64,000 nt of DNA from Candidatus Dadabacteria bacterium (GCA_963805855.1 CAWDVW010000002.1:224001-288000), one strand, 5' to 3'; positions 19,842 to 35,682 are shown, counted from the stretch's first letter. Made by a program: numbers and translations. Notes: generated from the letters alone by a model not told the origin.

Positions 19842-20771
19842 CTATGGCACCAGGCACCCGGGCGGCACACTTATAATTGCACTTGCACTCTCCTGATTGA
19901 TGTCGCCCCTCGGTCCAAAAATTTCACAATCAACAGGAGGCGCCAACAAGTCAACTACCACTGACGATTGGCCACCGGCCCTGATCCCAAATTCCTCAGA
20001 CGAGTTTATTACGAACTCTTCACCGCTGGAAAGATTCGTAAACGTCTGATTACTGCTCCTGACTCCGCTGTTTCGACTGGAAATTTCGAAGTTCCGAGAT
20101 GCATCAATTGAGATCACCGCTCTCTTATTTACATTGATACCAGCTGCACAATTTGTCGCGCTGAAGTTTTGTACATTTATCACAATAGAACTATTCTTGT
20201 TAGCTTTAATACAATCGTTTGATCTGCCGTTTATAGTAAAGTCTGCCAACTGCGGGGTCGTTATTGAGAATTCTGGTCCCGAAAATATAAATCTCTTACC
20301 GCCACCTATTCGTATCCGTTTTTGTTCTACCTGATAACCACCACCGTCAACATCATCAATAATTACCTGACCGGGACTTTCAAGTCTAACATCCAAAAAC
20401 ACTTGACTATCTTTTGTTATCAAGAAAAACTCGGAAAAGGTTTCTGAAAAGGGAAGAGGCGTCGTAAAAACCAATTCTATAAGTCGTTGAAGTCCCTTAG
20501 CGGGAACCTTTAACTGGTAAGCCCCAAATACGCCCGTTTCGGTACCCCTCCCCAAAGTTTTCCCGGTGTTCGGATTCATTGCTTCGATGGATATTCCAAA
20601 AACATCACCGGTATCTCCATTAACAGATGTTACCATCCCTGAAATCGTGACTCTTCCTGGCCCTCCACCACCGCCACCACCGCCGGTGACGTCAAAGCAA
20701 CCTGTCATTATTAGTGCCGCAGCTATTGCCGATGCGATAAAAAAGGAAGGAGCAATTGATCGTTTAGTCAT
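19842..20771 (-). CDS. Hypothetical lipoprotein (poly-Gly linker, possible beta-helix C-terminus)
   Basis: Lipobox MTGC, G8 tract and repeating GI/GV-rich C-terminal strands. Confidence 0.65.
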   Translation of the reverse strand: MTKRSIAPSFFIASAIAAALIMTGCFDVTGGGGGGGGPGRVTISGMVTSVNGDTGDVFGISIEAMNPNTGKTLGRGTETGVFGAYQLKVPAKGLQRLIELVFTTPLPFSETFSEFFLITKDSQVFLDVRLESPGQVIIDDVDGGGYQVEQKRIRIGGGKRFIFSGPEFSITTPQLADFTINGRSNDCIKANKNSSIVINVQNFSATNCAAGINVNKRAVISIDASRNFEISSRNSGVRSSNQTFTNLSSGEEFVINSSEEFGIRAGGQSSVVVDLLAPPVDCEIFGPRGDINQESASAIISVPPGCLVP

Positions 20772-21245
20772 TCGATTATTCTCCTAATAATCCGAAATCT
20801 TTCAATCCGCTCATTCTAGCACATGTCATCTCCTTGTCAATTAAACCCTTTCACGTGGTCAGACGACGATAAACGGAGTTTTCCAACTTCGACAATTAGC
20901 TTTTATCACGGCACGTATAAAGGTCCATCCCCTCTCCCTACTTCAGTCTCATTCTACAACTTCTTCATTTCAGGTATCTTCATTTTCGATGCGAGAAAGG
21001 GGTGCCTTGAAGAAGTTTGTTCATACGATTACGCATTTTCATTGCGTTGAGAATCGAATGTTCATAATTCTTAAGCATTTGGATTATGTAGTTTTTTGGC
21101 GGATCCTGGCAGGTGGCCCAGACAAGCTGCTAATGATATAATTATTGACACTAATATCTAGGAGCTTAAATTGTTATACATGGTATTTTTAAGTCCATTT
21201 CAGCAGCTAGGTTTCGAATCCCATCCTTAAAAAAGGGGGTAGCAT

Positions 21246-21617
21246 ATGAAGGCTATAAATAAACTTCCGATTGTTATCATACTTCTCTTCAGCACTGGCG
21301 CACTTGCCGGTGACCTCTTTGATAGCGGTCTTGGGGATAACGAAGTGGGTGCTGGCTCCAATTATGACGCCGCACAGAATAGTTGGGACTATGGAACTCA
21401 TGATGACGCTCTCAAGTACAATGTCTTTCAGGATAAGTGGAACTATGCGGGTGAAGGCGACAGTCTCAAGTACAACACCTTTGAGAACGAATGGGATTTC
21501 GCGGGCGAGGATGATAGTCTCAAGTATAACGTCTTCGAAAATAAGTGGGAGTATGCCGACGATAAAGACACGCTCAAGTACAACGTATTTGAAGACGAGT
21601 GGGAGTTTGCAAAGTAG
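21246..21617 (+). CDS. Secreted acidic protein with 18-aa tandem repeats (LKYNxFENxWxYAxxxDS)
   Basis: Signal peptide ending ALA. Four 54-bp repeats (ctcaagtac at 21411 and 21465) plus a degenerate first copy. Confidence 0.8.
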   Translation: MKAINKLPIVIILLFSTGALAGDLFDSGLGDNEVGAGSNYDAAQNSWDYGTHDDALKYNVFQDKWNYAGEGDSLKYNTFENEWDFAGEDDSLKYNVFENKWEYADDKDTLKYNVFEDEWEFAK

Positions 21618-21671
21618 GTGAAGGTTTGCTAAACGGCCTGTCCCGAAAATAGTTGAAAGGCTCAAAAAATT

Positions 21672-21806
21672 ATGTGCGACCCAGTGCTGATAGCCGCAAT
21701 TCCAGAAGAACTTGGCTACTTCGACGAAAAGAAGGGAAAGGACAAGAGGGAGGAATTTCGTGCCCAGCAGCTTGGCCAAGACAATTCAGAAGGCAGCACG
21801 GAATAA
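21672..21806 (+). CDS. Small protein, MCDPVL family, copy A (44 aa)
   Basis: MCDPVLIAAIPEELGYFDEKKGKDKREEFRAQQLGQDNSEGSTE*. Of 11 codon differences from copy B in the first 21 codons, 10 are synonymous. Confidence 0.7.
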   Translation: MCDPVLIAAIPEELGYFDEKKGKDKREEFRAQQLGQDNSEGSTE

Positions 21807-22006
21807 TAAGCAAAATAACTCATTTATTCAGGCCTGACCCTCAGAATTTGTACAATTCAAATATCGGGTAGTGGGGGTACGCTGCGTTCCCTCCCCTTCT
21901 TTGTTTGCAATTTAAAGGATTTTCGTTGGTTTTGCGATTCCACTAGTATTAAAGTATAATTGTATCATAGCATTATATTCTACCTAAAGGAGAGATATAG
22001 ATATAT

Positions 22007-22246
22007 ATGAAAACAGTCAACGTTCGTATACCGGAAGAAAAAAGGGATACTCTCAAGATCATTGCCAGCTTAGAGAAAAGAGACATGAAAGATATTATCT
22101 CAGAACTTGTCGACCAATATATTGAAAGACACAAGGAAACTCTTGAGATTCTTTCGAATCCCGACTGGGTAGAGCTGATTAGAAAGGGAAAGAAAGAAAT
22201 CGATGAGGGTATTAAGGGTAAATCCCTTGAAGAACTGGAAGACTGA
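22007..22246 (+). CDS. Type II antitoxin (RHH-like N-terminus, ETLEIL C-terminus)
   Basis: MKTVNVRIPEEKRDTLK. Overlaps the downstream RelE gene. Confidence 0.8.
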   Translation: MKTVNVRIPEEKRDTLKIIASLEKRDMKDIISELVDQYIERHKETLEILSNPDWVELIRKGKKEIDEGIKGKSLEELED

Positions 22247-22496
22247 AATAAAGCCGACTGCAGAAAAGAGCTACAGAAAGCTTGATAAAAAAACACGGGG
22301 TAGGATAAAAGAAGCTTTATTAAAATTGGAAAAAAGCGATAATCCTTTTCTGGAACAACAAGTCAGAGCGTTGACCGGCGAACTCAAGGGAGATTTTAGG
22401 CTTAGGGTTGGAGACTTAAGAATTTTATTTACGCCAGATAAGAAAAGAAAGGTAATCAGCATATATGCAATCATACACAGAGGAAAAGCATATTAG
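22227..22496 (+). CDS. RelE/ParE-family toxin
   Basis: AEKSYRKLDK, LTGELKGDFRLRVGDLRILF and IIHRGKAY. Likely TTG start at 22227. Confidence 0.88.
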   Translation: MKNWKTEIKPTAEKSYRKLDKKTRGRIKEALLKLEKSDNPFLEQQVRALTGELKGDFRLRVGDLRILFTPDKKRKVISIYAIIHRGKAY

Positions 22497-22539
22497 TATG
22501 ATTATTCTTAACATCCGCGATTGGGAACATCCCCCTTTG

Positions 22540-22893
22540 CCTGTCGTCCCCGAATGCTTTTTTCAGGGACCCATTATTTTGCTATCGTGAAGCGCAATAT
22601 CGGCTTGCCTATTCTGAGCCACCGTAAGGGCGAGCAAGCCCATGACTGTACCGGCGACCCGCCACCTTCAGTCATTCCAAAGCACGCCCAGTTAAAGTCA
22701 TACGGGGACAAGCATAATCGTGAATCCATGAATAAAAAGAGTTTCTTCTTCCCTTCGTTTTTCCTTCTATTCCTTATCACCCATTCGCCCTGAGTAGTGA
22801 GCTCGTCGAACTATCGAAGGGTGACAAATTCCAATAAACTGCCGGAAATCCCCTTACAAGTTGTCATTCCCGAGGACCGTAATCGGGAATCCA
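22540..22893. repeat. Cluster of REP/RPE-like palindromes (GTCATTCCCG..CGGGAATCCA and CCCTGAG..CGAAGGG families)
   Basis: gtcattcccgaggaccgtaatcgggaatcca (22863-22893), ccctgagtagtgagctcgtcgaactatcgaaggg and degenerate copies. Confidence 0.75.
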
Positions 22894-23037
22894 CGTGGTT
22901 GGTGAAAGTAGCTCGACATGATTGTCCTGAGTTCTGCACTTTATGACGGATCGGAGACTCTAAGAGTGGGTAAATAAGCAACTGAAGAACGAGCCTGACC
23001 CGGCCCCAGCGGGGTCCAGTGTTTAGAGACGAAGTGT

Positions 23038-23310
23038 TCAAAGCCTTTTCACAATCTTCTCATACACTATCTTCCGGTGAATGATTCCTAAAATTTCGAC
23101 TTCATTTTTAACGATTTTGAATACGATTCTTATATCTCCGACACGTAGTTTCCAGTAGCCTTTTAACGAGCCTCTGAGGGGTTTCCCATATTTCTCAGGC
23201 TCATCGGCTAATCTGGTTTTTATAGCTTCGGCGATGATCTTTTTTTGCTTCTTGTCAAGAATCGCAATGTCGTCTTCTACCTGAGGATGGTAAACAATGG
23301 TATAGGGCAT
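23038..23310 (-). CDS. RelE/ParE-family toxin
   Basis: YGKPLRGSLKGYWKLRVGDIRIVF and IIHRKIVY. Confidence 0.9.
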   Translation of the reverse strand: MPYTIVYHPQVEDDIAILDKKQKKIIAEAIKTRLADEPEKYGKPLRGSLKGYWKLRVGDIRIVFKIVKNEVEILGIIHRKIVYEKIVKRL

Positions 23311-23565
23311 TTATTTTCCCTGTAAGTGGCCAGTCCGATCCTTCCATATTTCTTCATGCGTGAGAGCTTTCTCTCGTCTAAACGTTTTCTCTCGTTCTGA
23401 CGCAATTTCACCCAGAATCATGTCTTCATGAATTTCCAGTGCCTCGCGAAGGAGATCTCGTGCTTTCAGTGAAATAGATATACCCTCCTTTTTTGCAATC
23501 TTTTTAATTGCTTCATAAAGGGGTTTTTCTAACACAACATTTATACGAGGGTTTTTAGCAGGCAT
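23311..23565 (-). CDS. RHH-family antitoxin
   Basis: NPRINVVLEKPLYEAIKKIAKKEGISIS and LTHEEIW. Directly upstream of the toxin. Confidence 0.85.
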   Translation of the reverse strand: MPAKNPRINVVLEKPLYEAIKKIAKKEGISISLKARDLLREALEIHEDMILGEIASEREKTFRREKALTHEEIWKDRTGHLQGK

Positions 23566-23689
23566 TATTACTCCTTAAATTTAATTGTTTAATAAAGTGT
23601 ATCACAAGTGATGTACTCATTCAAAAAATCTCCCATAAAATGGGTTAGTTCCGAAACGGTCAATTCTGTAATATAATTAATACATTCCA

Positions 23690-23722
23690 ATGTGTGATCC
23701 AGTACTGATAGCCGCAATCCTC
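23690..23722 (+). pseudogene. MCDPVL family copy C, cut after codon 11 by a palindromic element
   Basis: ATG TGT GAT CCA GTA CTG ATA GCC GCA ATC CTC. Upstream ccgaaacggtcaattctgtaatataat is shared with copy B. Confidence 0.7.
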
Positions 23723-23730
23723 CGCCGTTT

Positions 23731-23788
23731 GTCATTCCCGAGGATTCCCCGATCAAGGATTTCGAGGACAAGCGTAATCGGGAATCCA
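23731..23788. repeat. 58-bp nested palindromic element, identical to 25295-25352
   Basis: gtcattcccgaggattccccgatcaaggatttcgaggacaagcgtaatcgggaatcca. Confidence 0.9.
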
Positions 23789-23846
23789 TTTTTTCGTTTA
23801 CCCAGTTCCTGAATCTCAAGTTGTGTAATATAATAAATAAAAGCCC

Positions 23847-24078
23847 ATATGTGACCCAGTGCTAGTAGCGACAATCCTCAACCTACAGTCATTCCCGAGG
23901 ACTGTTGTCGGGAATCCATATCGTCATCGCGAAGGGAGAAGCCCTGTGGCGATCTCCCTATCTCTTGAAAAACTGGGATTTCTAAACGAGAGAGAAAGAA
24001 AAAGACAACAAAGGGGAAGTACATGCCGAGCAGCCTCAGCAAGATAATTCAAAAAACCGCGAGGAAGAAGAGATATAA
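23847..24078 (+). pseudogene. MCDPVL family copy D: ATG changed to ATA, in-frame ~84-bp palindrome insertion, distal frameshift
   Basis: (I)CDPVLVATIL-[insert]-LEKLGFLNER. A shifted frame gives KDNKGEVHAEQPQQDNSKNREEEEI*, similar to the tails of copies A and B. Confidence 0.7.
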
Positions 24079-24196
24079 GGTAAAGTCACCGATATCACAA
24101 AAATGATCTACCTATTTATTTTCCAATCTTTGATCCCTCGAAGTTTCGCTTTTGATCCTGCATCCATGTATCATGCATCCGGTATCCTGACTAGCC

Positions 24197-24349
24197 GTGT
24201 ATAAGTTAATAATCGCAATTCTTCTTATGCTTATATCTATTAGCGGATGTTCAAAACGAGCGGACTACAAAAACTTCTATCATGAAGGAAGGAGTCTCAT
24301 TAGGCCAGGCCATGAATCGCCGGCAGAGTATGGGAGCAGCTATCGATAG
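24197..24349 (+). CDS. Possible small lipoprotein (50 aa), perhaps truncated
   Basis: VYKLIIAILLMLISISGC (lipobox ISGC) followed by SKRADYKNFYHEG. Confidence 0.35.
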   Translation: MYKLIIAILLMLISISGCSKRADYKNFYHEGRSLIRPGHESPAEYGSSYR

Positions 24350-24473
24350 TAATCTCTTCAAGGATGTTGCGGAGGTTACACCTATTATTTGCGTACTTGC
24401 CTTTCAATATCACTTATCATCAATGTTGCGCAAAGATGCTTCCCTTTAATTCCTGAAGATTTGCTCTACGCTC

Positions 24474-24511
24474 TTGAAGATCTATCATAATCTGGCTATA
24501 ATCTAGCCAGA
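24474..24511 (+). promoter_or_regulatory. Sigma70-type promoter with an operator palindrome over the -10 box (TA module 3)
   Basis: TTGAAG (24474), 17-bp spacer, TATAAT (24497). Perfect inverted repeat TCTGGCTA-n5-TAGCCAGA. Confidence 0.65.
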
Positions 24512-24805
24512 ATCAAATACAAGATCATTTTTTCGCCGGAGGCCATTGAAGATTTTAAGCGATTATCAGCAAGAGATCGTGCTATCATGCGCGATGCCGT
24601 AGGACGACATCTAAGCCATGAACCCAATAAAACAAGTAGAAGTCGCATCAAGAGGTTGCAGGGAATCAGTCGTCCTCAATATCGGCTACTTGTCGGTGAA
24701 ATTCGAGTGTTTTATGATGTAGTAGAGGCGGCAGTAGAAATATTGGCGATTGTACCAAAATCAAAGGCCGCAGACTGGCTTGAAGGGTGGGGACAAGAAG
24801 AATGA
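24512..24805 (+). CDS. RelE/ParE-family toxin whose natural start position reads ATC
   Basis: (I)KYKIIFSPEAIEDFKRLSARDRAIMRDAVGRHL...RIKRLQG..PQYRLLVGEIRVFYDV. Confidence 0.8.
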   Translation: MKYKIIFSPEAIEDFKRLSARDRAIMRDAVGRHLSHEPNKTSRSRIKRLQGISRPQYRLLVGEIRVFYDVVEAAVEILAIVPKSKAADWLEGWGQEE

Positions 24806-25047
24806 AGAAAGTACCATTGTCAGAAGTAAAGGATCAGCTCTCCGAATATTTGCACCTGGCCGAGGAAGAAGAGATTATAATAACTCGGCATGGAAAACCT
24901 GCCGGCATTTTGATAGGGTTTGCTTCAGAGGATGATTGGTTTGATTATCGATTGGAGCATGATCCGAGGTTTTTAACCCGAGTTGAAAGAGCAAGGAAAA
25001 GCTTGCGTGAGGGGAAAGGAGTGTATCTCAAAGATCTTCCTGAATGA
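24802..25047 (+). CDS. Phd/YefM-family antitoxin
   Basis: MKKVPLSEVKDQLSEYL and IIITRHGKPAGILIG. ATGA overlap with the toxin stop. Confidence 0.9.
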   Translation: MKKVPLSEVKDQLSEYLHLAEEEEIIITRHGKPAGILIGFASEDDWFDYRLEHDPRFLTRVERARKSLREGKGVYLKDLPE

Positions 25048-25069
25048 TATGTCAAGGTAGCACCTGGGT

Positions 25070-25392
25070 ACGCAAGTTATCGGGAATCCATATCGTCATC
25101 GTAATTCGATGTACCCGGGATAGACTCCACTGCGGCGATCTCAGTACTTTGTCATTTCGAATACTTCGGTCGAGCTCAGCACAGGTTCCATGAGAAATCT
25201 TTCCGTTAAAATCATTTCTGGAAAGAAGAACAACAAGAGACGAAACAAAATAGTCAAACAAGCAAAGCCTGACCGTGGACACACCCACCGGTCTGTCATT
25301 CCCGAGGATTCCCCGATCAAGGATTTCGAGGACAAGCGTAATCGGGAATCCAGTATCGTCATCGCGAAGGGCAAAGTCCTGTGGCGACCTCC
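25070..25392. repeat. Cluster of REP/RPE-like palindromes, including the 58-bp element at 25295-25352 and GTCATCGCGA..GGCGA type
   Basis: Same composite arrangement as 23888-23956. Confidence 0.8.
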
Positions 25393-25398
25393 CTATCT

Positions 25399-25443
25399 CT
25401 CGAAGAACTGGTATACCTCGGCGAAAAGAAAGAAAAGAGCAAG
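25399..25443 (+). pseudogene. MCDPVL family copy E, 3' half only
   Basis: CTC GAA GAA CTG GTA TAC CTC GGC GAA AAG AAA GAA AAG = LEELVYLGEKKEK. Same palindrome junction (ccctatct) as copy D. Confidence 0.6.
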
Positions 25444-25447
25444 ATCG

Positions 25448-25810
25448 TTAAGATTTTGATTTGCGAGGTGTTTGGCTGTCCTCTTTTTTACGACTTTGGA
25501 TGGAGGCAAGGCCTGCAAGCAGCACAGGGGGTCTGTTAGGAAATTCAGCAACGATAGACAGCTCCCCGCCTAATGAGTGAATATACTCGCGCAGGGTTGA
25601 CAACAGCACGTCCGAGCGTGATTCAAGGCGCGAGACATTGTCCTGGCTGATCCTAAGTTTAGTTGCAACTGCTTTTTGGGTGAGATGGAGCGCCTTGCGT
25701 AACTCACGCATTGTCATCTCTTCGGCAATCAATTCCGCTGCACGGGCTTGAATCTTATCCCGTCTCTTTTTGGTCAGCTTGCTCAGCTTTTCATCAAGAG
25801 TTTTGCCCAT
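25448..25810 (-). CDS. XRE/HigA-type HTH antitoxin
   Basis: MRELRKALHLTQKAVATKLRISQDNVSRLESRSDVLLSTLREYI. Confidence 0.9.
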   Translation of the reverse strand: MGKTLDEKLSKLTKKRRDKIQARAAELIAEEMTMRELRKALHLTQKAVATKLRISQDNVSRLESRSDVLLSTLREYIHSLGGELSIVAEFPNRPPVLLAGLASIQSRKKEDSQTPRKSKS

Positions 25811-26193
25811 TATTTTTTCCCTTTCTTTTTCGTTTTTCTTGCCTTAAGCGCCACGAGATGGCTGTCAAAACGGCGGTCCGCCTTCTTTATGAGCCGTTCG
25901 TAAAATCGCTTCTCCCTCGTGCCGGATTTATCGCCAGCCATGAGAAGCACCGCTTTACGCTCGGGGTCAAAGGCAAAGACAACGCGCCACACCCCCTTAT
26001 CAGCCTTGAACCGCAGCTCCTTCATATTCGCATGCTTGGAGCCATAAAGCGTATCCACATGAGGCCGGCCCAGCTCCGGCCCGAAAGTCTCAAGTAGGGA
26101 AGCGTGCGCGTAAAGTTCATCCTGCACGGCTTCCGCCAGTTGATCGACCTCTGGCTCAAAATCGTCATGGAACGTGACAGTCCATTTCTTCAT
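25810..26193 (-). CDS. HigB-like RelE-family toxin (toxin-first order)
   Basis: FGPELGRPHVDTLYGSKHANMKELRF, WRVVFAFDPERKAVLLMAGDKSG. GC-rich relative to the flanks. Confidence 0.9.
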   Translation of the reverse strand: MKKWTVTFHDDFEPEVDQLAEAVQDELYAHASLLETFGPELGRPHVDTLYGSKHANMKELRFKADKGVWRVVFAFDPERKAVLLMAGDKSGTREKRFYERLIKKADRRFDSHLVALKARKTKKKGKK

Positions 26194-26480
26194 TTATTAT
26201 GACCCTTTTCAATATGTTGTCAAGTACATATGTATTGAAAGGCATATGTCCTCGGAAAGTCGGACACGCTCTCACTCGCACGCTGGGTGATGCTCTCCGG
26301 AATGTCTGCAAATACACCTGTTCCAACCATGGGCATATACATAAAGTTTAGCACCATAAATACCCATAAAGGGTTGCCCTTCAATCAACTCTGTCATGTC
26401 GCTTACAATATATCTTTTATATAGTTTATTAATTCTATTTAGGGATCAATATACAGCAGGTAAAAGAAATAGCAGGGATA

Positions 26481-26555
26481 ATGGCACAGCTTTGCAATGA
26501 GTGCGGTTTTAGAAGTAAAAAAGATAACTGTCTCAAGTGTGGAAGAAGGGTATAG
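26481..26555 (+). CDS. Possible 24-aa CxxC...CxxC micro-protein or gene remnant
   Basis: MAQLCNECGFRSKKDNCLKCGRRV*, preceded by AGGGA. Confidence 0.4.
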   Translation: MAQLCNECGFRSKKDNCLKCGRRV

Positions 26556-26693
26556 GTTCAAGGTTGGGCGGTTCAATGTCTGCATCACCAAACCCCTCAG
26601 TTAAAAATGAGATATTAACGTCTGTGTCCCCTCTGGCTCAATTATTGGCCTGTCCCGAAACAGTCAATTCTGTAATATAATAAATACAATTAT

Positions 26694-26840
26694 ATGTGTG
26701 ACCCGGTACTAATAGCAGCAATCCTCGAGGAACTAGGCTACTTTGACGAAAAGAAAGAAAAGGTCAAGAAGGACGAAGTTCATGATGAGGGAAGTAGCAA
26801 TGACCCTTCAGAAAACAGCAAGGAAGGAGATCAGAAATAA
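26694..26840 (+). CDS. Small protein, MCDPVL family, copy B (48 aa)
   Basis: MCDPVLIAAILEELGYFDEKKEKVKKDEVHDEGSSNDPSENSKEGDQK*. Upstream TATAAT. Downstream aaataactcatttattcatgcctgaccc is shared with copy A. Confidence 0.72.
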   Translation: MCDPVLIAAILEELGYFDEKKEKVKKDEVHDEGSSNDPSENSKEGDQK

Positions 26841-26966
26841 CTCATTTATTCATGCCTGACCCCGGACACTTTATACTGAACAAAATAATCAAACAAACAA
26901 AGCCTGGCCGTGCACATATACTATCCAAAGGGTATAATAGCTTAGTAAATTAGTAGGGAGATAAAG

Positions 26967-27212
26967 ATGACGACGAAGGGCAAAAAGAAAGCAAGGAGAA
27001 AACATGTTGTTAGAGCTCATCAGGTGCAAGTTGTAGAGCTGACAAAGGCAGGTACATCACTGAGATTAGAAATTTACGCACATAAAGAGAAAATAGGCAC
27101 GCTTGAAATTGGACGAGGTTCATTGTATTGGACTGGAAGATCTCGTCAAAAGAGTAATCGAATTAACTGGAGTAAGTTTGCTGACTGGATGGATCGACTT
27201 GCATATGACTGA
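26967..27212 (+). CDS. Hypothetical small basic protein
   Basis: RBS GGGAG and upstream TATAAT. LTKAGTSLRLEIY..KIGTLEIGRGSLYW. Confidence 0.7.
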   Translation: MTTKGKKKARRKHVVRAHQVQVVELTKAGTSLRLEIYAHKEKIGTLEIGRGSLYWTGRSRQKSNRINWSKFADWMDRLAYD

Positions 27213-27409
27213 TAGAACAACATCTTCGACCTTGCGTTTATCACGTTTAAGTGGCAGATTCCACCAAGTTCACTCCTTTCAAGTAGACCCACTTTCTCAA
27301 TTATTTTGTCTCTCTGCGTATTGCCAGATTCTTTATATATAGTATAAGATTTAGGACTGACCCCGGAGCTTTGTTAAAAAATTGGGATCAATTTAATATC
27401 AATAGAGGC

Positions 27410-27491
27410 AAGAAAATAAAAAAGTTTGTATTGATTTCCTGCGCTAGCAAAAAATTCCCGCGTAAATCCAAGGCAAAGGATTTATACATAG
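27410..27491 (+). pseudogene. N-terminal remnant of a DUF6884-like protein
   Basis: KKFVLISCASKKFPRKSKAKDLYI, cut at the inverted-repeat element. Confidence 0.55.
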
Positions 27492-27594
27492 TAACTAGTG
27501 ACAGACACGAATTAATTTCAACCTTAATAATAATTACTAGACGTAATCAGTTGATGGTCCCCCACCTATAAAAATAAGTGTCTGTCACTAGTTA
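27492..27594. mobile_element. 103-bp MITE/REPIN-like element with perfect 17-bp terminal inverted repeats
   Basis: TAACTAGTGACAGACAC (27492-27508) and GTGTCTGTCACTAGTTA (27578-27594). Confidence 0.7.
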
Positions 27595-27788
27595 TTTATT
27601 TCTATGTTTAGTATCAACAAACGGACTGTCAAGCCAATCCGATTTTAGGGGAACTGCCCTTACTCCCTCTTGATGAGTCATTCGCAATATCTGCCTATAT
27701 CTTGCAATAAAATCTTCCAATTTTCTAAAGAATATTTCAGAAATCTGTATTACTGTTTTTATTATATTGAAATGATTATATTATAGAA

Positions 27789-28787
27789 ATGCTTGAAAAC
27801 AACTTGAAAGATATGGTCGCTAAAAGATATGGCAAGTTAACTGTAAAGCACCGAGTATTCCCTAATGATAAACAAGGGGCTGCACAATATCTCTGTAAGT
27901 GTGATTGTGGTAAAGAAAAAGTTGTCAGGGGATATGTGTTGCGTAAAGGAGACACCAAATCTTGCGGTTGCTTGCGAGGACAAAATGCCCTCAAATTAGC
28001 TGGAAAAAGGTTTGGAAAGTGGACAGTTATTGAACGTGTAGAAAATAACGATAGAGGAACTTCCAGATGGTTATGTGAATGTGAGTGTGGCCGTCGTAAG
28101 GAGGTATTGGGGAATAATTTGGTTCAAAATAGAAGCAAATCTTGTGGCTGCGTAACTGTGGAAAATACAATTCGACGCAATTTTAAACATGGTTTTAGAA
28201 AACGAGACGCGGAACATCCGCTCTACACAACTTGGCTAAATATGAGAGATAGATGCAATAATCCTAAAAATAGCCATTGGAAACATTATGGAGGCAGAGG
28301 GATTAAGATATGTGAAAGGTGGAATGATTTCACAAAATTTATTGAAGACATAGGAGAAAGACCCCGTGGAGCGACCCTCGACCGTATTGACAATGATGGT
28401 GATTACGAGCCTGGAAATATAAGATGGGCTTCACATAGAGAGCAAAGAGCAAACCAAAGTCTGGTTTTTCAAGAGATGTATATTTATAGCATGAATACTA
28501 GTCTTGGGAAATCTGGGGGGAAGGGCAGATATGGGAAGGCTAGGTCTAAAGCTTATAACACTTGGAGTGGAGTGGTTCAAAGATGTACCAATCCAAAAGA
28601 AACTGCCTATGAATATTACGGAGGCAGAGGTATAAAGGTTGACAAATCTTGGAGAGAAAGCTTTTTAAAGTTTTATAAAGATATGGGTGACCCGCTCCCA
28701 GGATATGAATTACATCGTTTAGACCACGACGGAAATTATGAACCTGGCAATTGCGTGTGGGCAAAAAAAACTAGAAGGAAATTGTAA
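27789..28787 (+). CDS. Phage-type HNH-like endonuclease with duplicated Zn-binding repeats and two nuclease-like domains
   Basis: Two copies of (Y/F)GK(L/W)TV..CxCxCG..SCGC, and two copies of RCxNP..YGGRGI..L(D/H)R(I/L)DxDGxYEPGNxxWA. Confidence 0.8.
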   Translation: MLENNLKDMVAKRYGKLTVKHRVFPNDKQGAAQYLCKCDCGKEKVVRGYVLRKGDTKSCGCLRGQNALKLAGKRFGKWTVIERVENNDRGTSRWLCECECGRRKEVLGNNLVQNRSKSCGCVTVENTIRRNFKHGFRKRDAEHPLYTTWLNMRDRCNNPKNSHWKHYGGRGIKICERWNDFTKFIEDIGERPRGATLDRIDNDGDYEPGNIRWASHREQRANQSLVFQEMYIYSMNTSLGKSGGKGRYGKARSKAYNTWSGVVQRCTNPKETAYEYYGGRGIKVDKSWRESFLKFYKDMGDPLPGYELHRLDHDGNYEPGNCVWAKKTRRKL

Positions 28788-28833
28788 TGGTCGGAATGGA
28801 CTCGGAACAAATGATGTCAGTAGAAGAGGAGAC

Positions 28834-29178
28834 ATGAGAATGAGTATTATCTCAGACGCAAAAGAAATTGTGAAACTTGTGAGAAAGTTGGACGACGTCG
28901 AATTATACAGAAAAATTCTAAAACTGGAAGAAGAAATTATTGAGATTACTCGAAAAAACAACGACCTACAGCAGAAAATAGACGAACTTAAGAAAATTAT
29001 CGAAACAGAAACAAGCCTAGAATTTCGTCCGCCTTTTTATTACAGAGCGGGTGATGATATACCATTATGCCCTAAGTGCTGGGAAGTCGATAAGAAAATT
29101 ATTCACCTTGTTAATGTGAGAACTGCCTTTAATCCGTTGAGGTGTCAGTCATGCAGGTCTCGATACCCTCTAAGGTAA
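28834..29178 (+). CDS. Hypothetical coiled-coil protein with C-terminal zinc ribbon
   Basis: RBS AGAGGA before ATG 28834. LCPKCWE...RCQSC. Confidence 0.7.
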   Translation: MRMSIISDAKEIVKLVRKLDDVELYRKILKLEEEIIEITRKNNDLQQKIDELKKIIETETSLEFRPPFYYRAGDDIPLCPKCWEVDKKIIHLVNVRTAFNPLRCQSCRSRYPLR

Positions 29179-29400
29179 TTCATAGTCTAGCAAAGGAGAA
29201 ATCATATATTCGCTCAAGGAAGTTAATTAAAGAGAATATGGCGTTTAACTCAGTGCGGAAGAAAACATAAAGGTAAAGGGTATTGCTCCATACATTATCG
29301 AAGAGCCTCAAAATATGGAAACCCTTATGAGATAAGAATGAAAAGTTCCGCGAGACGCTTCAGTATGGACGGTTTTTGTCCATACCACTAGGTAATTTTA

Positions 29401-30313
29401 ATGGCTGAATTTAGAAATAAATTCCAGTGGTCAATTTCAAGACAGAGGAACTTCGACAAATGCAAACGACTCTATTATTACAGTCACTACGGTATGTGGG
29501 GCGGATGGGACATGTATGCACCAGAAGAAGCCAAGCTATGTTATAGATTATCAAGGATGACCAATCTACAAATGCTTGCGGGAAGTGTAGTACATGCGAT
29601 GATTAAGAATTGTTAAAAAGCGTTAAAAGTCCAAACTTAATGAGCCTGGATACTCTAAAGATAGAGCAAGAAATAAGCTTAATGGAGCATGGAAGCAGTC
29701 TAAGGAAAAGGGATGGCTTGAAAGCCCTAAGTGGAATATCAATCTATTTGAGCATTACTACAACAGGAACCCCTCAAAGGAATACTTAGAAAGAATAAAA
29801 TCCAAAGTAATGGACTCTTTAACTAATTTTTATAATTCAGAAATATTCTTAAACATAAAAGGAGTTGATTCTCTCTATTGGAAACCCATCGAACAATTTC
29901 AACAGTTGCAAATAGAGAATTACACAGTTGGTCTCAAGATGGATTTCGCTATTGAAATCGACGGGAAGTTGGAAATTTATGATTGGAAAACAGGAAAGGA
30001 AGACGATTCAAATATTGAACAGCTGGTTTGTTATGCCCTTTATGGAGAACAAGAATGGGGATATAGTCTTGACGATATTATTTTGAAGATATTTTATCTT
30101 AATGAAAACCAATTAGAGCAACATAATGTTTCGGCTGAGCAAAAAGTTGAGGCAATTGAAAGGATAATTCAAAATAGCGAGAGAATGCTCAGTATGCTCG
30201 ATGACAAGGATAACAATGTTGCCAGCAAAGACAATTTTCCTATGATTGATAACCTGAATGAATGCAAGTGGTGCTTTTTCCAAGAGATGTGCTATGGGGC
30301 TTCAGTCGAATAG
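29401..30313 (+). CDS. PD-(D/E)XK nuclease (RecB/Cas4-like) with two single-base frameshifts near 29605 and 29658
   Basis: WSISR..CKRLYYY, GSVVH, KMDFA..IYDWKTG, QLVCYA and CKWCFFQEMC. The bridging frame reads RARNKLNGAWKQS..LFEHYY. Confidence 0.8.
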
Positions 30314-30426
30314 GCGTTGATTTTCTAACGGCTAACTTAAATCAAAGGTACTAGAAACCGCTTGAGCTGACATCCCGTGTTATCCTTCTTTGAAGTCTCT
30401 TATCGTCTTTCCAGGTGGTTCACTTT

Positions 30427-30477
30427 GTACACGACCTACACAGCCGATTGATTATGAACCTAGTGTAGTAAGTGTAC
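30427..30477. repeat. ~50-bp imperfect hairpin repeat, family H, copy 1
   Basis: GTACAC-gac-CTACAC...GTGTAG-taa-GTGTAC. Homologous to 32263-32310 and 34552-34600. Confidence 0.65.
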
Positions 30478-30533
30478 TTGTGTGAGAGATAGAAAGTCGT
30501 TAATTACGAATATTTAAACCTCCTACTGGTATT

Positions 30534-31352
30534 TTGTATACTAGTTACTGTGCAACAAATTCGGAGACTAAGGCATTGTTGAGTTTTCTCGATCGAATAA
30601 TTTCAAGTCTTAACAAATCTAAATCAATTCCCCTACTTGACATTGAAGAACTGAAAAAGCGTGGAAAAAGAAATATAGAAGACGCAATATTTATAAAAGA
30701 GAAATTAATTCCTATTGCAGTTAAATACGAACATTGGAATATCGTTGTATTTGAATCATATGCAGTTATAGAATTAATTATGAAAGGGCTAATTTGTTTG
30801 ACCAAGAATGCTCCATGTAAAACGCATGAAATCAAAAAGTTGGTTGAACAAATGTTGAATATTCTGTCAATGTTTTCAGCTAATAACTCTTGGTTACCTT
30901 TACTTTATAATCACTACCCAAAGAGCGGTGACGGTTATTGTGTAGACATTGATAGTGATATTATTCGTGTGTACAGAATTGACAATGACGTATATACACA
31001 GTTGGGGGCATCTAGTGCAGTTAGAAATATAAAATCTGTCGATGAAATTTTAAGACTCACAGTCAAGAAATTTAAAAATGAAATAGCTGTAAGTGTAGGA
31101 GACGATGAAATTATCAGAAGAAACGACTCGACATATGATTTCCCCGACGAAAGCGAATGGGAAAGGGGATTTAATTTAAGACCAAATTCAGAAAGACTGG
31201 GACTGTTGATAAGGTTAGGAAAGAAATTAAGAAGAATACGCGAAAAATCGTTCTATGGCGAAATAATTTATGATGAAGAAAAAGCTAAAAAGGTTGTGTC
31301 GAGTATGGACGAATGGTTAGATGCTGCAGCCTGCTTCTTTATAAGTGATTAA
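30534..31352 (+). CDS. HEPN-domain-like protein with a large internal insertion
   Basis: WNIVVFESYAVIELIMKGLI..KTHEI (HEPN N-half) and LRRIREKSFYG..A (C-half), separated by about 110 aa. Confidence 0.6.
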   Translation: MYTSYCATNSETKALLSFLDRIISSLNKSKSIPLLDIEELKKRGKRNIEDAIFIKEKLIPIAVKYEHWNIVVFESYAVIELIMKGLICLTKNAPCKTHEIKKLVEQMLNILSMFSANNSWLPLLYNHYPKSGDGYCVDIDSDIIRVYRIDNDVYTQLGASSAVRNIKSVDEILRLTVKKFKNEIAVSVGDDEIIRRNDSTYDFPDESEWERGFNLRPNSERLGLLIRLGKKLRRIREKSFYGEIIYDEEKAKKVVSSMDEWLDAAACFFISD

Positions 31353-31355
31353 GCA

Positions 31356-31518
31356 ATACTGTTCCCCATTAAGAAGCTAGTAGAATTGAGCTAGTAAAAT
31401 AACGTGAAAAAGCTCTAAGGAGTGGGGGGGGGGGAGCAATGAAGCGAGGGAGATGGGATTCTAGAATAAACACTTATATGTATTGAAGGTTTGTTTGACA
31501 AAAGTGAAGCAGTACAAT
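31356..31518. repeat. ~155-160 bp inverted-repeat-bounded element, family R, copy 1
   Basis: atactgttccccattaagaagctag...ggagcaatgaag...tattgaagg..ttgacaaaagtgaagcagtacaat. Contains a G11 run at 31424-31434. Confidence 0.8.
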
Positions 31519-31603
31519 CTGCTTAGATGACCATGGTGAAATTTCATAGGGTCACGATGCTACATTCTTGTAATAATCCCAAAAAGAAGTTTTATTTGGG
31601 AAT

Positions 31604-32170
31604 TTATAAGCAAAACTTTATATATAATAATATGCCAGCAGCGATAATAACTAAGATAACCCGCAGATTAAAAAAGTGTGCATAAGTTATCGAACTGCAG
31701 TGAGGACACTTTAAGGTAGCAGAGCCTATTTCACCACCACATTTACCGCACTTATCAAATATGCGGGGTTTCGCTCCAGTAGCCTTAATTTGGGTTTCTT
31801 TAACGGAAGTCGTGAGATTAGTAGATATTCTTCCTTGGTTATATCTATTATCGAAATCTTGTTCGCTCATAGAGAGATAAGATAGCCCCTCCAAGAAACC
31901 AACGATAGCTGGTATGAACGTCCAACAGAATATCAAATAAATGAAACCCCAACCAGGACTGTCCAAATAGAATTTATGTATTCCAATGCCGCCTAGAAAT
32001 ATTGCCAGCAACGCCGCCGTACTTTTGCTTTTGTTTGTCCGAACAACGATTGGGGTTTGAGATGTAGGTTTTGGAGAGGTGGTTTTGTTTTGGTCGAGCC
32101 ACTCTCCACAGAATCTACACTTTTTAGCATCATCTTGAATCTCTTCAGCACAATAAGGGCATTTTCTCAC
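31604..32170 (-). CDS. Zinc-ribbon and TM2 (NINE) domain membrane protein
   Basis: CPYCAEEIQDDAKKCRFCGE, KSKSTAALLAIFLGGIGIHKFYL and a second CxxC pair. Confidence 0.85.
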   Translation of the reverse strand: MRKCPYCAEEIQDDAKKCRFCGEWLDQNKTTSPKPTSQTPIVVRTNKSKSTAALLAIFLGGIGIHKFYLDSPGWGFIYLIFCWTFIPAIVGFLEGLSYLSMSEQDFDNRYNQGRISTNLTTSVKETQIKATGAKPRIFDKCGKCGGEIGSATLKCPHCSSITYAHFFNLRVILVIIAAGILLYIKFCL

Positions 32171-32262
32171 TTAAGTTACCTCCCTCAATACCTTCTACCA
32201 ATCGCTCTAGTATATCAAAATTGGGATTATATTTTAATAGTATTTTAATCTAGTTCATTTAG

Positions 32263-32310
32263 CACACTATCTACACAAATTTTGATTGTGAACTTTGTGC
32301 AGCAAGTGTA
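32263..32310. repeat. Hairpin family H, copy 2
   Basis: cacactatctacacaaattttgattgtgaactttgtgcagcaagtgta. Confidence 0.65.
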
Positions 32311-32482
32311 TCTATCAAGCGAAACGAAAAGGTTCAAAACTTTTGTATACTTGTATCCCATATTAAATTCATTTGAAAACTCCGATATAATCTTGTTAAC
32401 TTCATATTGAATTGCTTATTTTGTATAATTCTTATTAAACTTTAATTCAGAAGAACTTATTATTTAAAGAAGCGAGGGCGTC

Positions 32483-33487
32483 ATGGTGACTTTGAATAAA
32501 GTTTTTCGGTCTATTGGGAAGGCTAAACGTGCTTCGGAAAGAGCCTCAAGGAAAAGGCAACGTGAACTTGAACAGCAACATAAGCAAATGGCTCGCATGG
32601 AAGAGTTGGAACGAGCAGCCTATGAGGTGGAATTGTACGAGAATTATATAGATAGATTAATTTCAGTTCACAAAGAAGCAGGAGAATCAGTCAACTGGGA
32701 AGCAGTTACAAACTCTAAACCGCCTGAAAAACCGATTCCGCAATCTTTAAATGAGAGCAAGGCACGAGAACTCTGGAGTAACTATAAACCAGGAATATGG
32801 GATAGGATGTGGAAAAAAGAGGAGAAAAGTCGGGAAACTCTTTTCGAGAATATAGAAAAAGGAAAGCAAAGGGATGAAGAAGAGTACCAAAAATTACTTA
32901 GTGAATACGACCAGAGCTATGCTGATTGGAAAGCAAGCAAAGAGTTCGCAGATAAAATAATGGCTGGTGAGAAAGATGCATACTTAGAAGCGCTAAAAGA
33001 ACTTAATCCCTTCACTGAAATCAGCGAACTTGGCTCTAGCATAGATTTTGGGATAAGTAATAATAAAGTATTAACTGCTCTTGTCCACGTTCATGGTGAA
33101 AAAGTCATACCGAAAAACATTAAGAGTTTACTTAGCAGTGGAAAAATGAGTGTTAAAGCGATGCCGAAAATCAAATATTTTGAACTTTACCAAGACCATG
33201 TTTGCAGTAGCGTTGTGCGTGTTGCTAGAGAATTGTTGGCAATTCTACCAGTAGACTCGGCTGTAATTCATGCCGAGGATAAGTTGTTAAACCCACAGAC
33301 TGGTCACCTAGAAGATAAGATTATTTTGTCAGTTGCAATCCCTAGAAGCACTCTGGAACAGATAAACTTTGATACGATTGACCCATCCGACTCAATGAGA
33401 AATTTCGTTCATCGAATGAACTTCAAGAAAAACAGCGGCTTTATGGAAGTAGAACCTATAGACCCCGCCGAGATTAACCCAGCATAA
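32483..33487 (+). CDS. Conserved-looking hypothetical protein with N-terminal coiled coil
   Basis: Long ORF. LISVHKE, YQDHVCS..RVARELL and TGHLEDKIILSV, a type seen in prophage/island proteins. Confidence 0.65.
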   Translation: MVTLNKVFRSIGKAKRASERASRKRQRELEQQHKQMARMEELERAAYEVELYENYIDRLISVHKEAGESVNWEAVTNSKPPEKPIPQSLNESKARELWSNYKPGIWDRMWKKEEKSRETLFENIEKGKQRDEEEYQKLLSEYDQSYADWKASKEFADKIMAGEKDAYLEALKELNPFTEISELGSSIDFGISNNKVLTALVHVHGEKVIPKNIKSLLSSGKMSVKAMPKIKYFELYQDHVCSSVVRVARELLAILPVDSAVIHAEDKLLNPQTGHLEDKIILSVAIPRSTLEQINFDTIDPSDSMRNFVHRMNFKKNSGFMEVEPIDPAEINPA

Positions 33488-33520
33488 GCAATTATGACCA
33501 TTCCAGTCACTGAAACAGGC

Positions 33521-34528
33521 TTATTGAAAATCTCTTCTAGTACCATCTTCATATAAAATACTATCGACTGTAAAAGTTGCTTTCATATTTTTTTTGTCTG
33601 TAGTCCTGACCCAATTGTGCTCCCACTTAAATTGATTATAGTCAAAGCCACCATTCAAGTTTATTTTTCCATTGGGAGCGATAGGCTCATCAATTGTCCA
33701 ACCAACCCTCATTTTAGTTTCACCGAACAGGTCTTGCAAATTCAATGTACCCTTTATAGCACGTGCCGTCTTGTCAAGACCAGGAGCTGTGACTTCTAAA
33801 TCGAAAAAGATGAATTTTTGATAATCTTGCTCAGTAAATTTTTTATCTAGAATTTTCACATCAAGAATCTCATCTTGTAACTTCGACTTGCTTTTGGAAT
33901 CGGGTTGTGATGATGGAGCAGTGCCAACGCCGCTTGAGGCAACTTCTGTCTCTTCCTTTTTTATATCTTCTGGAGTAGGTAATTTTGGAAACGCCAATCC
34001 ATATTTGGCGATAAGATACCTTTGCTTCAGCATTGCTAACGTTTGCTCGTACGTAGCGACCGCCGATAGTTTCATAGCATAAATTAATCCTCCAGAATAT
34101 TGTTCAGCCTCTGATTTTGCATTTTGAAGCTCCTTGTTCACGCCATCAATCTCTTCCTGTATTTTCCCTGCAAGTTCGGGGTCGGCATTGGTTACAAAAG
34201 TTTCAGTAGTTACAGGGCTGCCAGACTCGATTGAGTTTATACGCTGTTCCAGCAACGCCTTGTTTGTTTTCAGTATTTCTATTCTGGCTTCAATAAGCAA
34301 TTTAATTAGACCTCCCTCGTACTGCTGGTCTATTTTTTCAGCATCTACTATATCCTTTTGTACGTCTTCAAGCTCACCTTTCAGTTCATTAACTTTTGCT
34401 TTTTCTTCAGGACTAAGTTCAGCGGATTTGCAAGAAACAATGATTAAAATTATCGCTATACTGAGAGATAGATACGAATTTCTAACCATATTTTCATTCC
34501 TCTCGATTTCTTCAACCTGTAAGTGCAT
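33521..34528 (-). CDS. Hypothetical lipoprotein with duplicated coiled-coil (YxGGLI) repeat
   Basis: Lipobox IVSC. QYEGGLIK and QYSGGLIY. Confidence 0.7.
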   Translation of the reverse strand: MHLQVEEIERNENMVRNSYLSLSIAIILIIVSCKSAELSPEEKAKVNELKGELEDVQKDIVDAEKIDQQYEGGLIKLLIEARIEILKTNKALLEQRINSIESGSPVTTETFVTNADPELAGKIQEEIDGVNKELQNAKSEAEQYSGGLIYAMKLSAVATYEQTLAMLKQRYLIAKYGLAFPKLPTPEDIKKEETEVASSGVGTAPSSQPDSKSKSKLQDEILDVKILDKKFTEQDYQKFIFFDLEVTAPGLDKTARAIKGTLNLQDLFGETKMRVGWTIDEPIAPNGKINLNGGFDYNQFKWEHNWVRTTDKKNMKATFTVDSILYEDGTRRDFQ

Positions 34529-34551
34529 TATAGCATAAGTGTTTTAGCGTG

Positions 34552-35670: not shown

Positions 35671-35682
35671 AATCTCAATAAT

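Follow-up and report, generated by a model that had tools for sequence, protein, structure and literature searches.

What is a short open reading frame (ORF) doing when it recurs five times between four different toxin–antitoxin (TA) pairs, intact at some points and broken at others? The question is raised by an array at positions 21,618–26,966 of a 64,000-nt stretch of DNA from Candidatus Dadabacteria bacterium (GCA_963805855.1 CAWDVW010000002.1:224001-288000), the whole of which is called the window here. A sequence-only reading had proposed a selected micro-protein carried in a repeated unit, which acts either as a spacer or landing site for TA cassettes or as an accessory regulator of TA activity. 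The analysis reported here indicates that the micro-ORF is a real gene under purifying selection, with translation predicted, and that the unit carrying it closes with what appears to be a transposon end. The explanation favoured, at somewhat less than an even chance, is that the unit forms the conserved terminal module of small cassettes, each consisting of cargo plus unit, which stack in variable hot spots of genomic islands.

The repeated unit and its micro-gene

The window contains five copies of the unit, A to E, all on the + strand and lying between the four TA pairs. They are listed below with the repeats that interrupt them, including hairpins resembling repetitive extragenic palindromic (REP) sequences; T1 is a 28-nt motif at the 3′ end of the unit, and E-values refer to an nhmmer profile built from four intact copies, with which, and by tblastn, the genome was searched.

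21630-21841, +: unit A (E=5.4e-57), directly after a gene for a 123-aa protein, with no TATAAT box
21672-21806, +: micro-ORF A, 44 aa, intact
21814-21841, +: T1 3′ motif of unit A, 2 mismatches to the 28-nt motif
23643-23722, +: unit C, promoter-like box and codons 1–11 (model positions 8-91, E=8.1e-14)
23727-23788, +: long-form REP-like hairpin repeat cutting C, 98% identical to the copy at 25291-25352
23799-24087, +: unit D, in halves at 23799-23881 and 23963-24087 (E=2.2e-09 and 6.2e-12), with a hairpin and a second REP-like insertion at 23888-23960; start codon lost
25291-25395, +: long-form hairpin repeat and second REP-like repeat before E, from a repeat search of the window
25398-25449, +: unit E (model positions 88-139, E=1.3e-07), cut off at the end of TA pair 4
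26642-26864, +: unit B (E=3.7e-64), complete, with promoter-like box (TATAAT at 26676-26681), ORF and T1
26694-26840, +: micro-ORF B, 48 aa, intact; ATG 12 nt past TATAAT, no Shine-Dalgarno sequence
26836-26863, +: T1 3′ motif of unit B, exact 28-nt match, with the stop codon inside it

The resemblance among these copies is far beyond chance. Five copies, with A and B intact and C, D and E disrupted, is also how the array had been read from the sequence alone, and the coordinates agree; for micro-ORF A the coordinates stood while the residues did not, its product (MCDPVLIAAIPEELGYFDEKKGKDKREEFRAQQLGQDNSEGSTE) containing ...AAIPEEL... and not the ILEEL read there earlier. Micro-ORF B encodes MCDPVLIAAILEELGYFDEKKEKVKKDEVHDEGSSNDPSENSKEGDQK. 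C (ATG at 23690) and D (from 23847) keep codons 1–11 and then run into a hairpin repeat, GTCATTCCCGAGG...CGGGAATCC; in D, 2 nt of ATGTGTGAC are gone, the start codon with them, and the second half of the ORF resumes after an insertion of ~80 nt. E retains the second half of the ORF only. The flanks are shared as had been described, with cctgtcccgaaa upstream of A and B, ctgtaatataat upstream of B, C and D, and aaataactcatttattca[g/t]gcctgaccc following A and B. New relative to that reading are the transposon-type 3′ end, the breakage of C, D and E by REP-like hairpin insertions, and the extension of the family across the genome.

Comparison of A and B over codons 1–21 shows 11 differing codons, ten synonymous and one nonsynonymous, a tally that was recounted. 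A wider comparison drew on units from the window's genome (G000) and from fetched loci of three relatives, among which 33 copies have a 5′ part. ORFs open over 40–56 codons were flagged by script in 17 copies, from which two hairpin-interrupted read-throughs were removed. For the 15 intact copies left, from four genomes, the ratio of nonsynonymous to synonymous substitution (dN/dS, Nei-Gojobori) is 0.09 over codons 1–21 and 0.16 over codons 1–27, values obtained from pairwise, non-independent comparisons of copies picked for being open, at synonymous sites near saturation (dS about 1; proportion of synonymous differences, pS, 0.53–0.56). No other frame comes close: over codons 1–27 the shifted frames give 0.77 and 1.93, and the reverse frames 1.28, 0.28 and 2.47. 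The tail has a ratio of 0.68, and summed column entropy at codon positions 1, 2 and 3 is 9.0, 6.8 and 23.1, respectively. Copy A and its orthologue are open in both G000 and the congener G001 (locus L031).

Homologues are plentiful in environmental data. A word-indexed search of 5.8 billion proteins gave 126 candidates, 125 of which match at E<=1 with lengths of 26–84 residues; most are of 45–50 residues and lie on contigs of 1–3 kb, as expected if assemblies break at these repeats, and two are labelled Thermodesulfobacteriota. The ORF length is kept at 44–50 codons in more than 100 variants. In the resulting picture the micro-protein has 44–50 residues, the N-terminal 21 nearly invariant (MCDPVLIAAILEELGYFDEKK) and the tail variable and charged. 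Across 58 aligned homologues 15 N-terminal columns are at least 90% conserved and the tail varies, the residues recorded at that level being M1, C2, D3, P4, L6, I7, A8, A9, I10, L11, E12, E13, L14, G15, Y16, D18 and K21. AlphaFold2, run on the 58-row alignment, places a helix at residues 4–13, with a mean predicted local distance difference test score (pLDDT) of 89 for residues 1–10, 80 for 11–20 and 50–55 for the tail; the micro-protein is thus predicted to be a short N-terminal helix with a disordered tail.

The ORF stands alone in these searches. Exhaustive HMMER searching of 1.84 billion representatives returned 79 matches at E<=1e-3, of which 78 are of 110 aa or fewer; the other, to a 2118-aa protein (E=7.7e-4), consists of six short stretches and is probably due to chance. 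Among proteins of 96–2000 residues two matches were found, and these, like the forms of 60–84 residues, are explained wholly by a start further upstream or by reading on into the 3′ motif (...ITHLFMPDP). The sequences thus indicate that the micro-ORF is not the N-terminus of a longer protein, a possibility that the sequence-only reading had named as one that would undo it. That reading had also recognised no family, which still stands: NCBIfam holds no family for micro-proteins A and B and no likeness to an antitoxin, chaperone or adaptor family, the ESM Atlas gave no usable match (Pfam was not searched with the micro-protein), and Rfam gave none at E<=1 across window positions 20500-28000. 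Within the literature and database searches run, which cannot show that none is in print, the family is undescribed so far.

Alignment of 16 full copies with their flanks resolves the unit into a mosaic of ~220 bp: a promoter-like box, the ORF and a 3′ motif, the last in three alternative forms. The conserved 5′ part reads ...CAGTTCCGAAAT.CTCAATTCTGTAATATAAT..., with the ATG 12 nt further on; the TATAAT box is missing from copy A and its G001 orthologue, both of which lie directly after a gene. The position of TATAAT 12 nt before the ATG, with no Shine-Dalgarno sequence, would fit a nearly leaderless mRNA with a leader of ~5–7 nt. A promoter scan found, on the minus strand, GTCACA-17-TATATT over the ATG of the micro-ORF in B (26674-26702), D (23827-23855) and C (23670-23698), facing the upstream neighbour, which in C is TA pair 2 (− strand), ~100 nt away; the + strand TATAAT site went unscored because its −35 region is poor. 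These promoter-like sites are consensus matches, and the unit may act as a two-way promoter. Folding yields nothing comparable: as single-stranded DNA, unit B reaches -13.9 kcal/mol (z=+0.70), no better than its shuffles, and as RNA the unit has no significant fold (z=+0.42 against shuffles). Two candidate features of the sequence were dropped. The 5′ cctgtcccgaaa had been considered a direct repeat of the 3′ GCCTGACCCC, and since other copies read CAGTTCCGAAAT at the former site the likeness is probably chance; GCCTGACCCG at 22993, considered as a unit remnant after TA pair 1, falls within 22868-23001, which matches a non-unit stretch of G001.

Might the ORF nevertheless be spurious, the repeat being non-coding or a small-RNA gene conserved at the DNA or RNA level? 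The missing Shine-Dalgarno sequence, the promoter-like hexamers that overlap the ATG on both strands and the many broken copies would all be at home in such a repeat. Set against them are the concentration of variation at third codon positions, the low dN/dS in this frame only, the length held across more than 100 variants, and the lack of an RNA fold or Rfam match, and the idea is accordingly rated very improbable. It is the low dN/dS in a single frame, together with over 100 short homologues, that makes the ORF a real gene, and here the earlier proposal of a selected micro-protein is borne out.

Cargo and neighbouring toxins

The genes between and beside the window units are as follows, with TA families as assigned by Pfam.

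21246-21617, +: 123-aa tandem-repeat protein gene with a signal-peptide-like start; non-TA cargo before unit A
22007-22496, +: TA pair 1, a 79-aa partner and a ParE/RelE-like toxin (22203-22496; PF05016, E=3.2e-07)
23038-23565, −: TA pair 2, ParE toxin (23038-23310) and ribbon-helix-helix antitoxin (23311-23565)
24497-25047, +: TA pair 3, weak ParE-like frame (24497-24805) and Phd/YefM antitoxin (24787-25047)
25448-26193, −: TA pair 4, helix-turn-helix (HTH) antitoxin (25448-25810) and Gp49/HigB-like toxin (25810-26193)
26967-27212, +: 81-aa cargo ORF after B, with no Pfam family, followed by a T1-like end, ATTTAGGACTGACCCCGGA, at 27349-27367

Four different TA pairs in mixed orientation are therefore upheld, with two caveats: Pfam has no family for the 79-aa first gene of pair 1, and the ParE-like frame of pair 3 scores 22.4 bits against a cut-off of 23, with residue 31 of the matching frame preceded by no ATG, GTG or TTG, so that it is either a decayed toxin or one using an unusual start, beside an intact Phd partner. 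The 123-aa protein, which contains three 54-nt tandem repeats with the motif D.LKYNVFE..W.YA, has no Pfam family.

In G000 the unit profile and tblastn gave 32 matches at E<=1, of which 24, in 15 loci on contigs C2, C4, C5, C6 and C7, reach E<=1e-3; besides A and B, intact ORFs are present at C7:723797 and C6:101689. Among 41 genomes (G000 and 40 relatives, which are kin, so that counts across them are non-independent) units occur in five: 16 matches in G000, 35 and 17 in two congeners, 20 in a genome from another genus of the family, and a single weak match in one more. The remaining 36 gave none, among them nine genomes that belong to the family and every one of the 26 drawn from the order's other families. 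When one genome per GTDB species was scanned, relatives were confirmed in only two records, a Thermodesulfobacteriota metagenome-assembled genome and a Desulfobacterota bacterium. The arrays belong to a genus of Thermodesulfobacteriota and a sister genus of it, a few sediment bacteria; in them the units share one orientation and alternate with small cargo, for the most part type II TA pairs facing either way.

The association with TA genes, which the sequence-only reading had asked to be tested elsewhere, recurs genome-wide in G000 and in three other genomes. Of 16 toxin genes from four Pfam families in G000 (ParE, HicA, PIN and Gp49), seven lie within 1 kb of a unit; counted as loci, three of 12 are near a unit (permutation P=0.0007), one of these being the window that prompted the hypothesis. 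Each of the four intact copies in G000 has a toxin gene no more than 500 bp away (ParE, Gp49, HicA and BrnT), and further unit loci adjoin MazE/PIN, HTH/Gp49 and a Fic/Doc fragment. For the other three genomes, ORFs near and far from units were called mechanically and Pfam tallies cover the 25 commonest families per table. Among the matches listed for 118 ORFs within 500 bp of a unit are ParE (6), HicA (4), HicB-like (3), UPF0150 (2), Y1_Tnp (2), and YafQ, HepT and Abi_alpha (1 each); for 99 ORFs of these loci that lie 1.5 kb or more from a unit, CopG (2) is the sole TA family among the matches listed.

Such a neighbourhood could reflect function rather than mobility, the micro-protein being an accessory factor of TA biology, for example a modulator of antitoxin turnover or of TA transcription. 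The closeness of every intact G000 copy to a toxin gene and the enrichment of TA families near units in other genomes both lean this way, and the highly conserved, predicted N-terminal helix may point to a conserved binding partner. The neighbouring toxins, however, span at least seven unrelated families (ParE/RelE, HigB/Gp49, HicA, BrnT, PIN, Doc/Fic and YafQ) and some cargo, such as the 123-aa repeat protein and the 81-aa ORF, is not TA at all, which argues that the micro-protein is not the partner of one TA family. Nine of the 12 toxin loci in G000 have no unit, 36 of 41 related genomes lack it (their TA content was not looked at), and NCBIfam offers no likeness to an antitoxin, chaperone or adaptor. 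An accessory role in TA biology is considered unlikely, and the data do not support a role as regulator or partner of a particular TA pair.

What the cargo does display is recurrent pairing with the unit. Among 50 neighbouring unit pairs less than 3 kb apart, in G000 and the fetched loci of relatives, 44 are co-oriented, with a median start-to-start spacing of 820 bp. The clearest array is a 2878-bp contig of the unit-bearing relative G007 (C142), which runs unit, TA1 homologue, intact unit, TA2 homologue on the opposite strand, decayed unit, HicA/HicB and unit, with spacers of 80–100 nt. The TA pairs of the window have counterparts in similar settings: TA1 is 93.5% identical on G001:C9 and 76.5% identical on G007:C142, followed by a unit in both; TA2 is 78% identical beside a unit on G002:C97 (G002 being the second congener), has homologues beside units in G002 and G007, and precedes a unit in G000, G007 and G002:C2; TA3 is 91% identical beside a unit on G007:C711; and TA4 has a counterpart of 88.5% identity on G001:C22, again with a unit fragment before it. 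A unit comes after the 123-aa gene in G000, G001 (L031) and G007 (L043), and two different arrays, G000:C6 and G001:C134, share HicAB joined to a unit's first half at 93% identity.

The same sites differ in content between relatives, as the sequence-only reading had asked to be checked. Between unit A and TA4, G000 carries TA1, TA2 and TA3, and G001 a different set of small genes. Alignment of the three congeners runs as far as the 3′ end of a tRNA-Arg(TCG) gene (L054:1635-1712 on G000:C6, L066:3133-3210 in G001, L067:1534-1611 in G002), beyond which the unit and TA content differs in each, and at C7:542 kb G001 carries ~2.6 kb more than G000, beside a T1 end. Metagenome contigs on the array, from four DNA runs, are short and break at repeats; because the joints listed run from repeat to repeat, with sides of 35 nt or less (one of 113), they allow no inference on strain-level variation in cargo.

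Several further observations concern the flanks of the window array. Just 5′ of unit B lies a 24-codon ORF resembling a mini zinc ribbon (CxxC...CxxC, 26481-26555), and the block that joins it to the first half of the unit (26480-26726) has an inverted counterpart in G001 (L031:10859-11103) at 83% identity. To the right, 27000-41700 has a low GC content (35–39% against about 44%) and mostly genes without a family, and looks like a genomic island, with no integrase among the ORFs scanned. It holds a 332-aa ORF (27789-28787) with an internal duplication and no Pfam match, which repeats ...YGGRGI(K)... W...F..F..D(I/M)G..P.G..L.R.D..G.YEPGN..WA, as well as PD-(D/E)XK nuclease-like (29810-30313), HEPN-domain (30534-31352) and TM2/zinc-ribbon (31604-32170) ORFs, and ends at a HicA toxin gene (41306-41476, −) and a tRNA-Thr gene (41671-41743).

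The 3′ end, the hairpins and a possible movement of cassettes

The T1 motif occurs 16 times in the genome at up to six mismatches, and outside the units it is found in a telling position. Inverted T1 copies bound a 1026-bp element (G000 C5:690328-691353) between inositol monophosphatase and isochorismatase genes, whose ORF (C5:690382-691320) matches Y1_Tnp (E=4.5e-14) and, in a C-terminal DnaA-like HTH, Bac_DnaA_C (E=3.6e-11); on the NCBIfam model for REP-associated tyrosine transposases (RAYT; NF047646) it scores 68.5 bits, below the cut-off of 80. An internal-deletion derivative of 264 bp (C5:697421-697684) has the same inverted T1 ends, and three paralogous Y1 genes have related inverted ends, all starting GGGGTCA, one type of which (...AGATTTGACCCC) is similar to the second form of unit end, ...TTGTAGACTTGACCCC. 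In units and Y1 elements alike, similarity ends exactly after ...GACCCC, beyond which the sequence is unrelated between copies, and no target-site duplication is found at the ends of the Y1 elements. The 3′ end of the unit is therefore read as a transposon end of the IS200/RAYT-like, HUH Y1 kind.

A second boundary lies inside the ORF. First halves of units end sharply at model position 79–80, the end of codon 11 and the point of hairpin insertion, and second halves are preceded by the hairpin or by another REP-like repeat. The 14-nt head of the hairpin repeat has 65 copies in G000, and a REP-like hairpin often precedes the unit as well. In the window, 62-nt direct hairpin copies (23727-23788 and 25291-25352; 98% identical) bracket unit D and TA pair 3, a footprint like that of recent recombinational insertion at a repeat. 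Some interrupted copies (L030:9003-9084 and its neighbours on G001:C122, and D in the window) carry a hairpin-plus-REP insertion of ~90 nt that is in frame and free of stops, with the read-through product MCDPALIASIL-[31 aa]-ELGYFDQT..., and recall the in-frame insertions of palindromic elements known from Rickettsia.

If the unit is the terminal module of cassettes, as favoured here, hot spots, of which one immediately follows tRNA-Arg, would acquire, lose and rearrange cargo-plus-unit cassettes through cutting and joining at the sharp Y1-type end and at the hairpin insertion point after codon 11. This would most probably be done by the genome's Y1 transposases, which exist in multiple copies and would work on single strands, or by recombination at repeats, and the micro-protein would be a general factor borne by the cassette rather than the partner of one TA family. 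A more specific version describes a novel cassette system that is not an integron: HUH Y1 (RAYT-like) transposases would excise and re-insert cargo-plus-unit cassettes as single strands, through the ...TGACCCC end and the hairpins, with the 48-residue protein, expressed from its own near-leaderless promoter, as a required accessory or maintenance factor. This version is judged improbable.

The main rival needs no movement of cargo. A selfish mosaic repeat of the type of palindrome-associated transposable elements (PATEs), miniature inverted-repeat transposable elements or REP sequences, which happens to contain a micro-gene, would settle in insertion-tolerant islands and accumulate there passively beside TA genes. 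This is regarded as a serious possibility, clearly behind the terminal-module explanation and well ahead of every other. The points in its favour and those against the favoured explanation are taken together here. The hairpin head is present in 65 copies and hairpins insert into the unit itself; most copies are fragments, only 15 of the 33 with a 5′ part retaining the ORF; and the arrays sit at the 3′ end of tRNA-Arg and beside a low-GC island, classic dumping grounds. Ten of the 15 unit loci in G000 showed no TA gene in scans of four toxin families genome-wide and of the neighbours of six loci, nine of these being single matches, most without the ORF start. No cassette junction or recombinase was found, nor any empty site, excised circle or conserved left cassette end, and where TA cassettes are shared, homology in most cases gives out in the flanks of the TA genes themselves and not at one set position within the unit. 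A fixed crossover after codon 11 was rejected, as only one shared block of high identity ends there, and a hairpin in the partner copy accounts for that. The copies are old (dS about 1; A and B are 75% identical), and in G000 and G001 alike ~6.3 kb separates the Y1 element with T1 ends from its derivative, which suggests that the Y1 elements were inherited rather than recently moved; with both, recent Y1 activity is not evident. The Y1 family is present in 26 of the 41 genomes, most of them without units. Finally, the micro-ORF has no Shine-Dalgarno sequence, though neighbouring genes have one, and the dN/dS estimates carry the limits given with them.

Passive accumulation, in turn, has to account for the strict alternation of unit and cargo with 80–100-nt spacers on G007:C142, the same pairs of cargo and downstream unit in different arrays of three genomes, the co-orientation of 44 of 50 neighbouring pairs, and purifying selection over saturated synonymous divergence, which is unexpected for junk. 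The earlier image of a spacer or landing site for TA cassettes survives in part: the recurring pattern of unit and TA pair is real, whereas a role as landing site finds no recombinase, crossover point or empty site to support it, and no recombinase gene adjoins the window array.

Two further candidates were set aside. Matches to the Y1 family number 6–11 in unit-bearing genomes against 0–5 in others, and Y1 presence (26/41) fails to predict units (5/41), so that co-distribution was dropped as an argument. A two-ended transposon with the TA pairs as cargo, and an inverted T1 on the left, was rejected because T1-like cores are almost all on the + strand and no inverted end follows the units of G007:C142.

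Relation to known arrays, and significance

One close parallel is the integron. Clusters of attC sites without an integrase are termed CALINs, and an integron cassette array or CALIN, with attC inside the unit, is a reading that fits the architecture, in which repeats of one orientation alternate with small cargo, TA pairs face either way and the cargo differs between relatives. Sedentary chromosomal integrons and CALINs likewise combine co-oriented boundary repeats with small cargo, frequently TA pairs in either orientation, and content variable between relatives; IntegronFinder (PMC4889954) and a study of TA cassettes in integron arrays (bioRxiv 10.1101/2022.08.03.502626) deal with arrays of this kind. 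They differ from the present arrays in the integrase and in the boundary, which here is 220 bp long, forms no hairpin, codes for a selected protein and bears a transposon-end motif, not an attC core. The best score on the IntI model (NCBIfam TIGR02249) is 89.7 bits against a cut-off of 265, none of four unit-bearing genomes passing, and 14 control genomes give the same generic tyrosine-recombinase matches. An attC site is an imperfect palindrome whose single strand forms a hairpin with R''/L''...L'/R' boxes; the single-stranded fold (z=+0.70) speaks against it, by an indirect test, as do the 3-periodic coding pattern and the end GCCTGACCCC, which, judged by eye, is not a GTTRRRY core. With no IntI passing the cut-off and no hairpin fold, an integron is taken to be very improbable, on a par with the spurious ORF.

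REP sequences served by RAYT are short, GC-rich palindromes present in many extragenic copies. REP/REPIN–RAYT systems, together with IS200/IS605-derived PATEs, resemble the present elements in having a Y1 HUH gene between inverted copies of a motif that is also found alone elsewhere, in the lack of target-site duplications, and in mosaics of nested repeats with hairpins inserting at a fixed point. The differences are that the motif has only 16 copies, that the 28-mer contains no clear palindrome on inspection, that it forms the 3′ end of a protein-coding module, and that the Y1 protein has a DnaA-C-like HTH and scores below the RAYT cut-off. A PATE would be expected to have distinct left and right ends, each with a hairpin, no duplicated target and insertion 3′ of a short fixed target; the unit has a sharp right end without duplication, a REP-like hairpin often precedes it, and no empty site or target motif was found. 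REP/REPIN–RAYT systems are the subject of Bertels et al. 2017 (PMC5581495).

TA modules are also common among the pdif modules of Acinetobacter plasmids. These dif modules (PMC6449649, PMC13141974) are small and discrete, bounded by a conserved 28-bp site, shuffled between replicons and without a dedicated transposase in the module; their sites are XerC/XerD binding sites, with XerC and XerD arms to either side of a 6-nt spacer, in alternating orientation and on plasmids. The present motif differs in being co-oriented, chromosomal and attached to a micro-gene, with no dif-like arms evident by eye; AATAA-CTCAT-TTATT is a weak inverted repeat.

Multi-copy genes for small proteins are familiar too from type I TA systems such as Ldr, Ibs, Hok and AapA, whose toxins have a hydrophobic membrane helix and are overlapped by an antisense RNA. 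Very short ORFs with their own promoter and several diverged copies per genome are shared with them, whereas the micro-protein is no typical type I toxin, having no hydrophobic segment of transmembrane length, its predicted helix covering residues 4–13 and the rest being charged, and the promoter-like sites on the two strands would be divergent, not placed over the ORF, with no antisense partner evident in the sequence. In the part of the literature that the search reached, integron arrays, REP/RAYT systems and Acinetobacter dif modules are the nearest comparisons and no protein-coding boundary unit turned up, which does not prove that it is unpublished.

Micro-proteins of fewer than 50 residues are usually missed by annotation, and in this family the signs of selection are unusually clean, environmental variants number more than 100 and the genomic setting follows a defined pattern. 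Were it only a passenger, it would still be a selected coding sequence inside a mosaic repeat, which matters for repeat masking and for the filtering of small ORFs in metagenomes. The only DNA that single-strand Y1 transposases are usually credited with moving is their own or short REP sequences. Should the unit prove to mark the borders of cassettes, these bacteria would possess a gene-shuffling platform for TA and defence genes that is linked to Y1 transposases and operates without an integron integrase.

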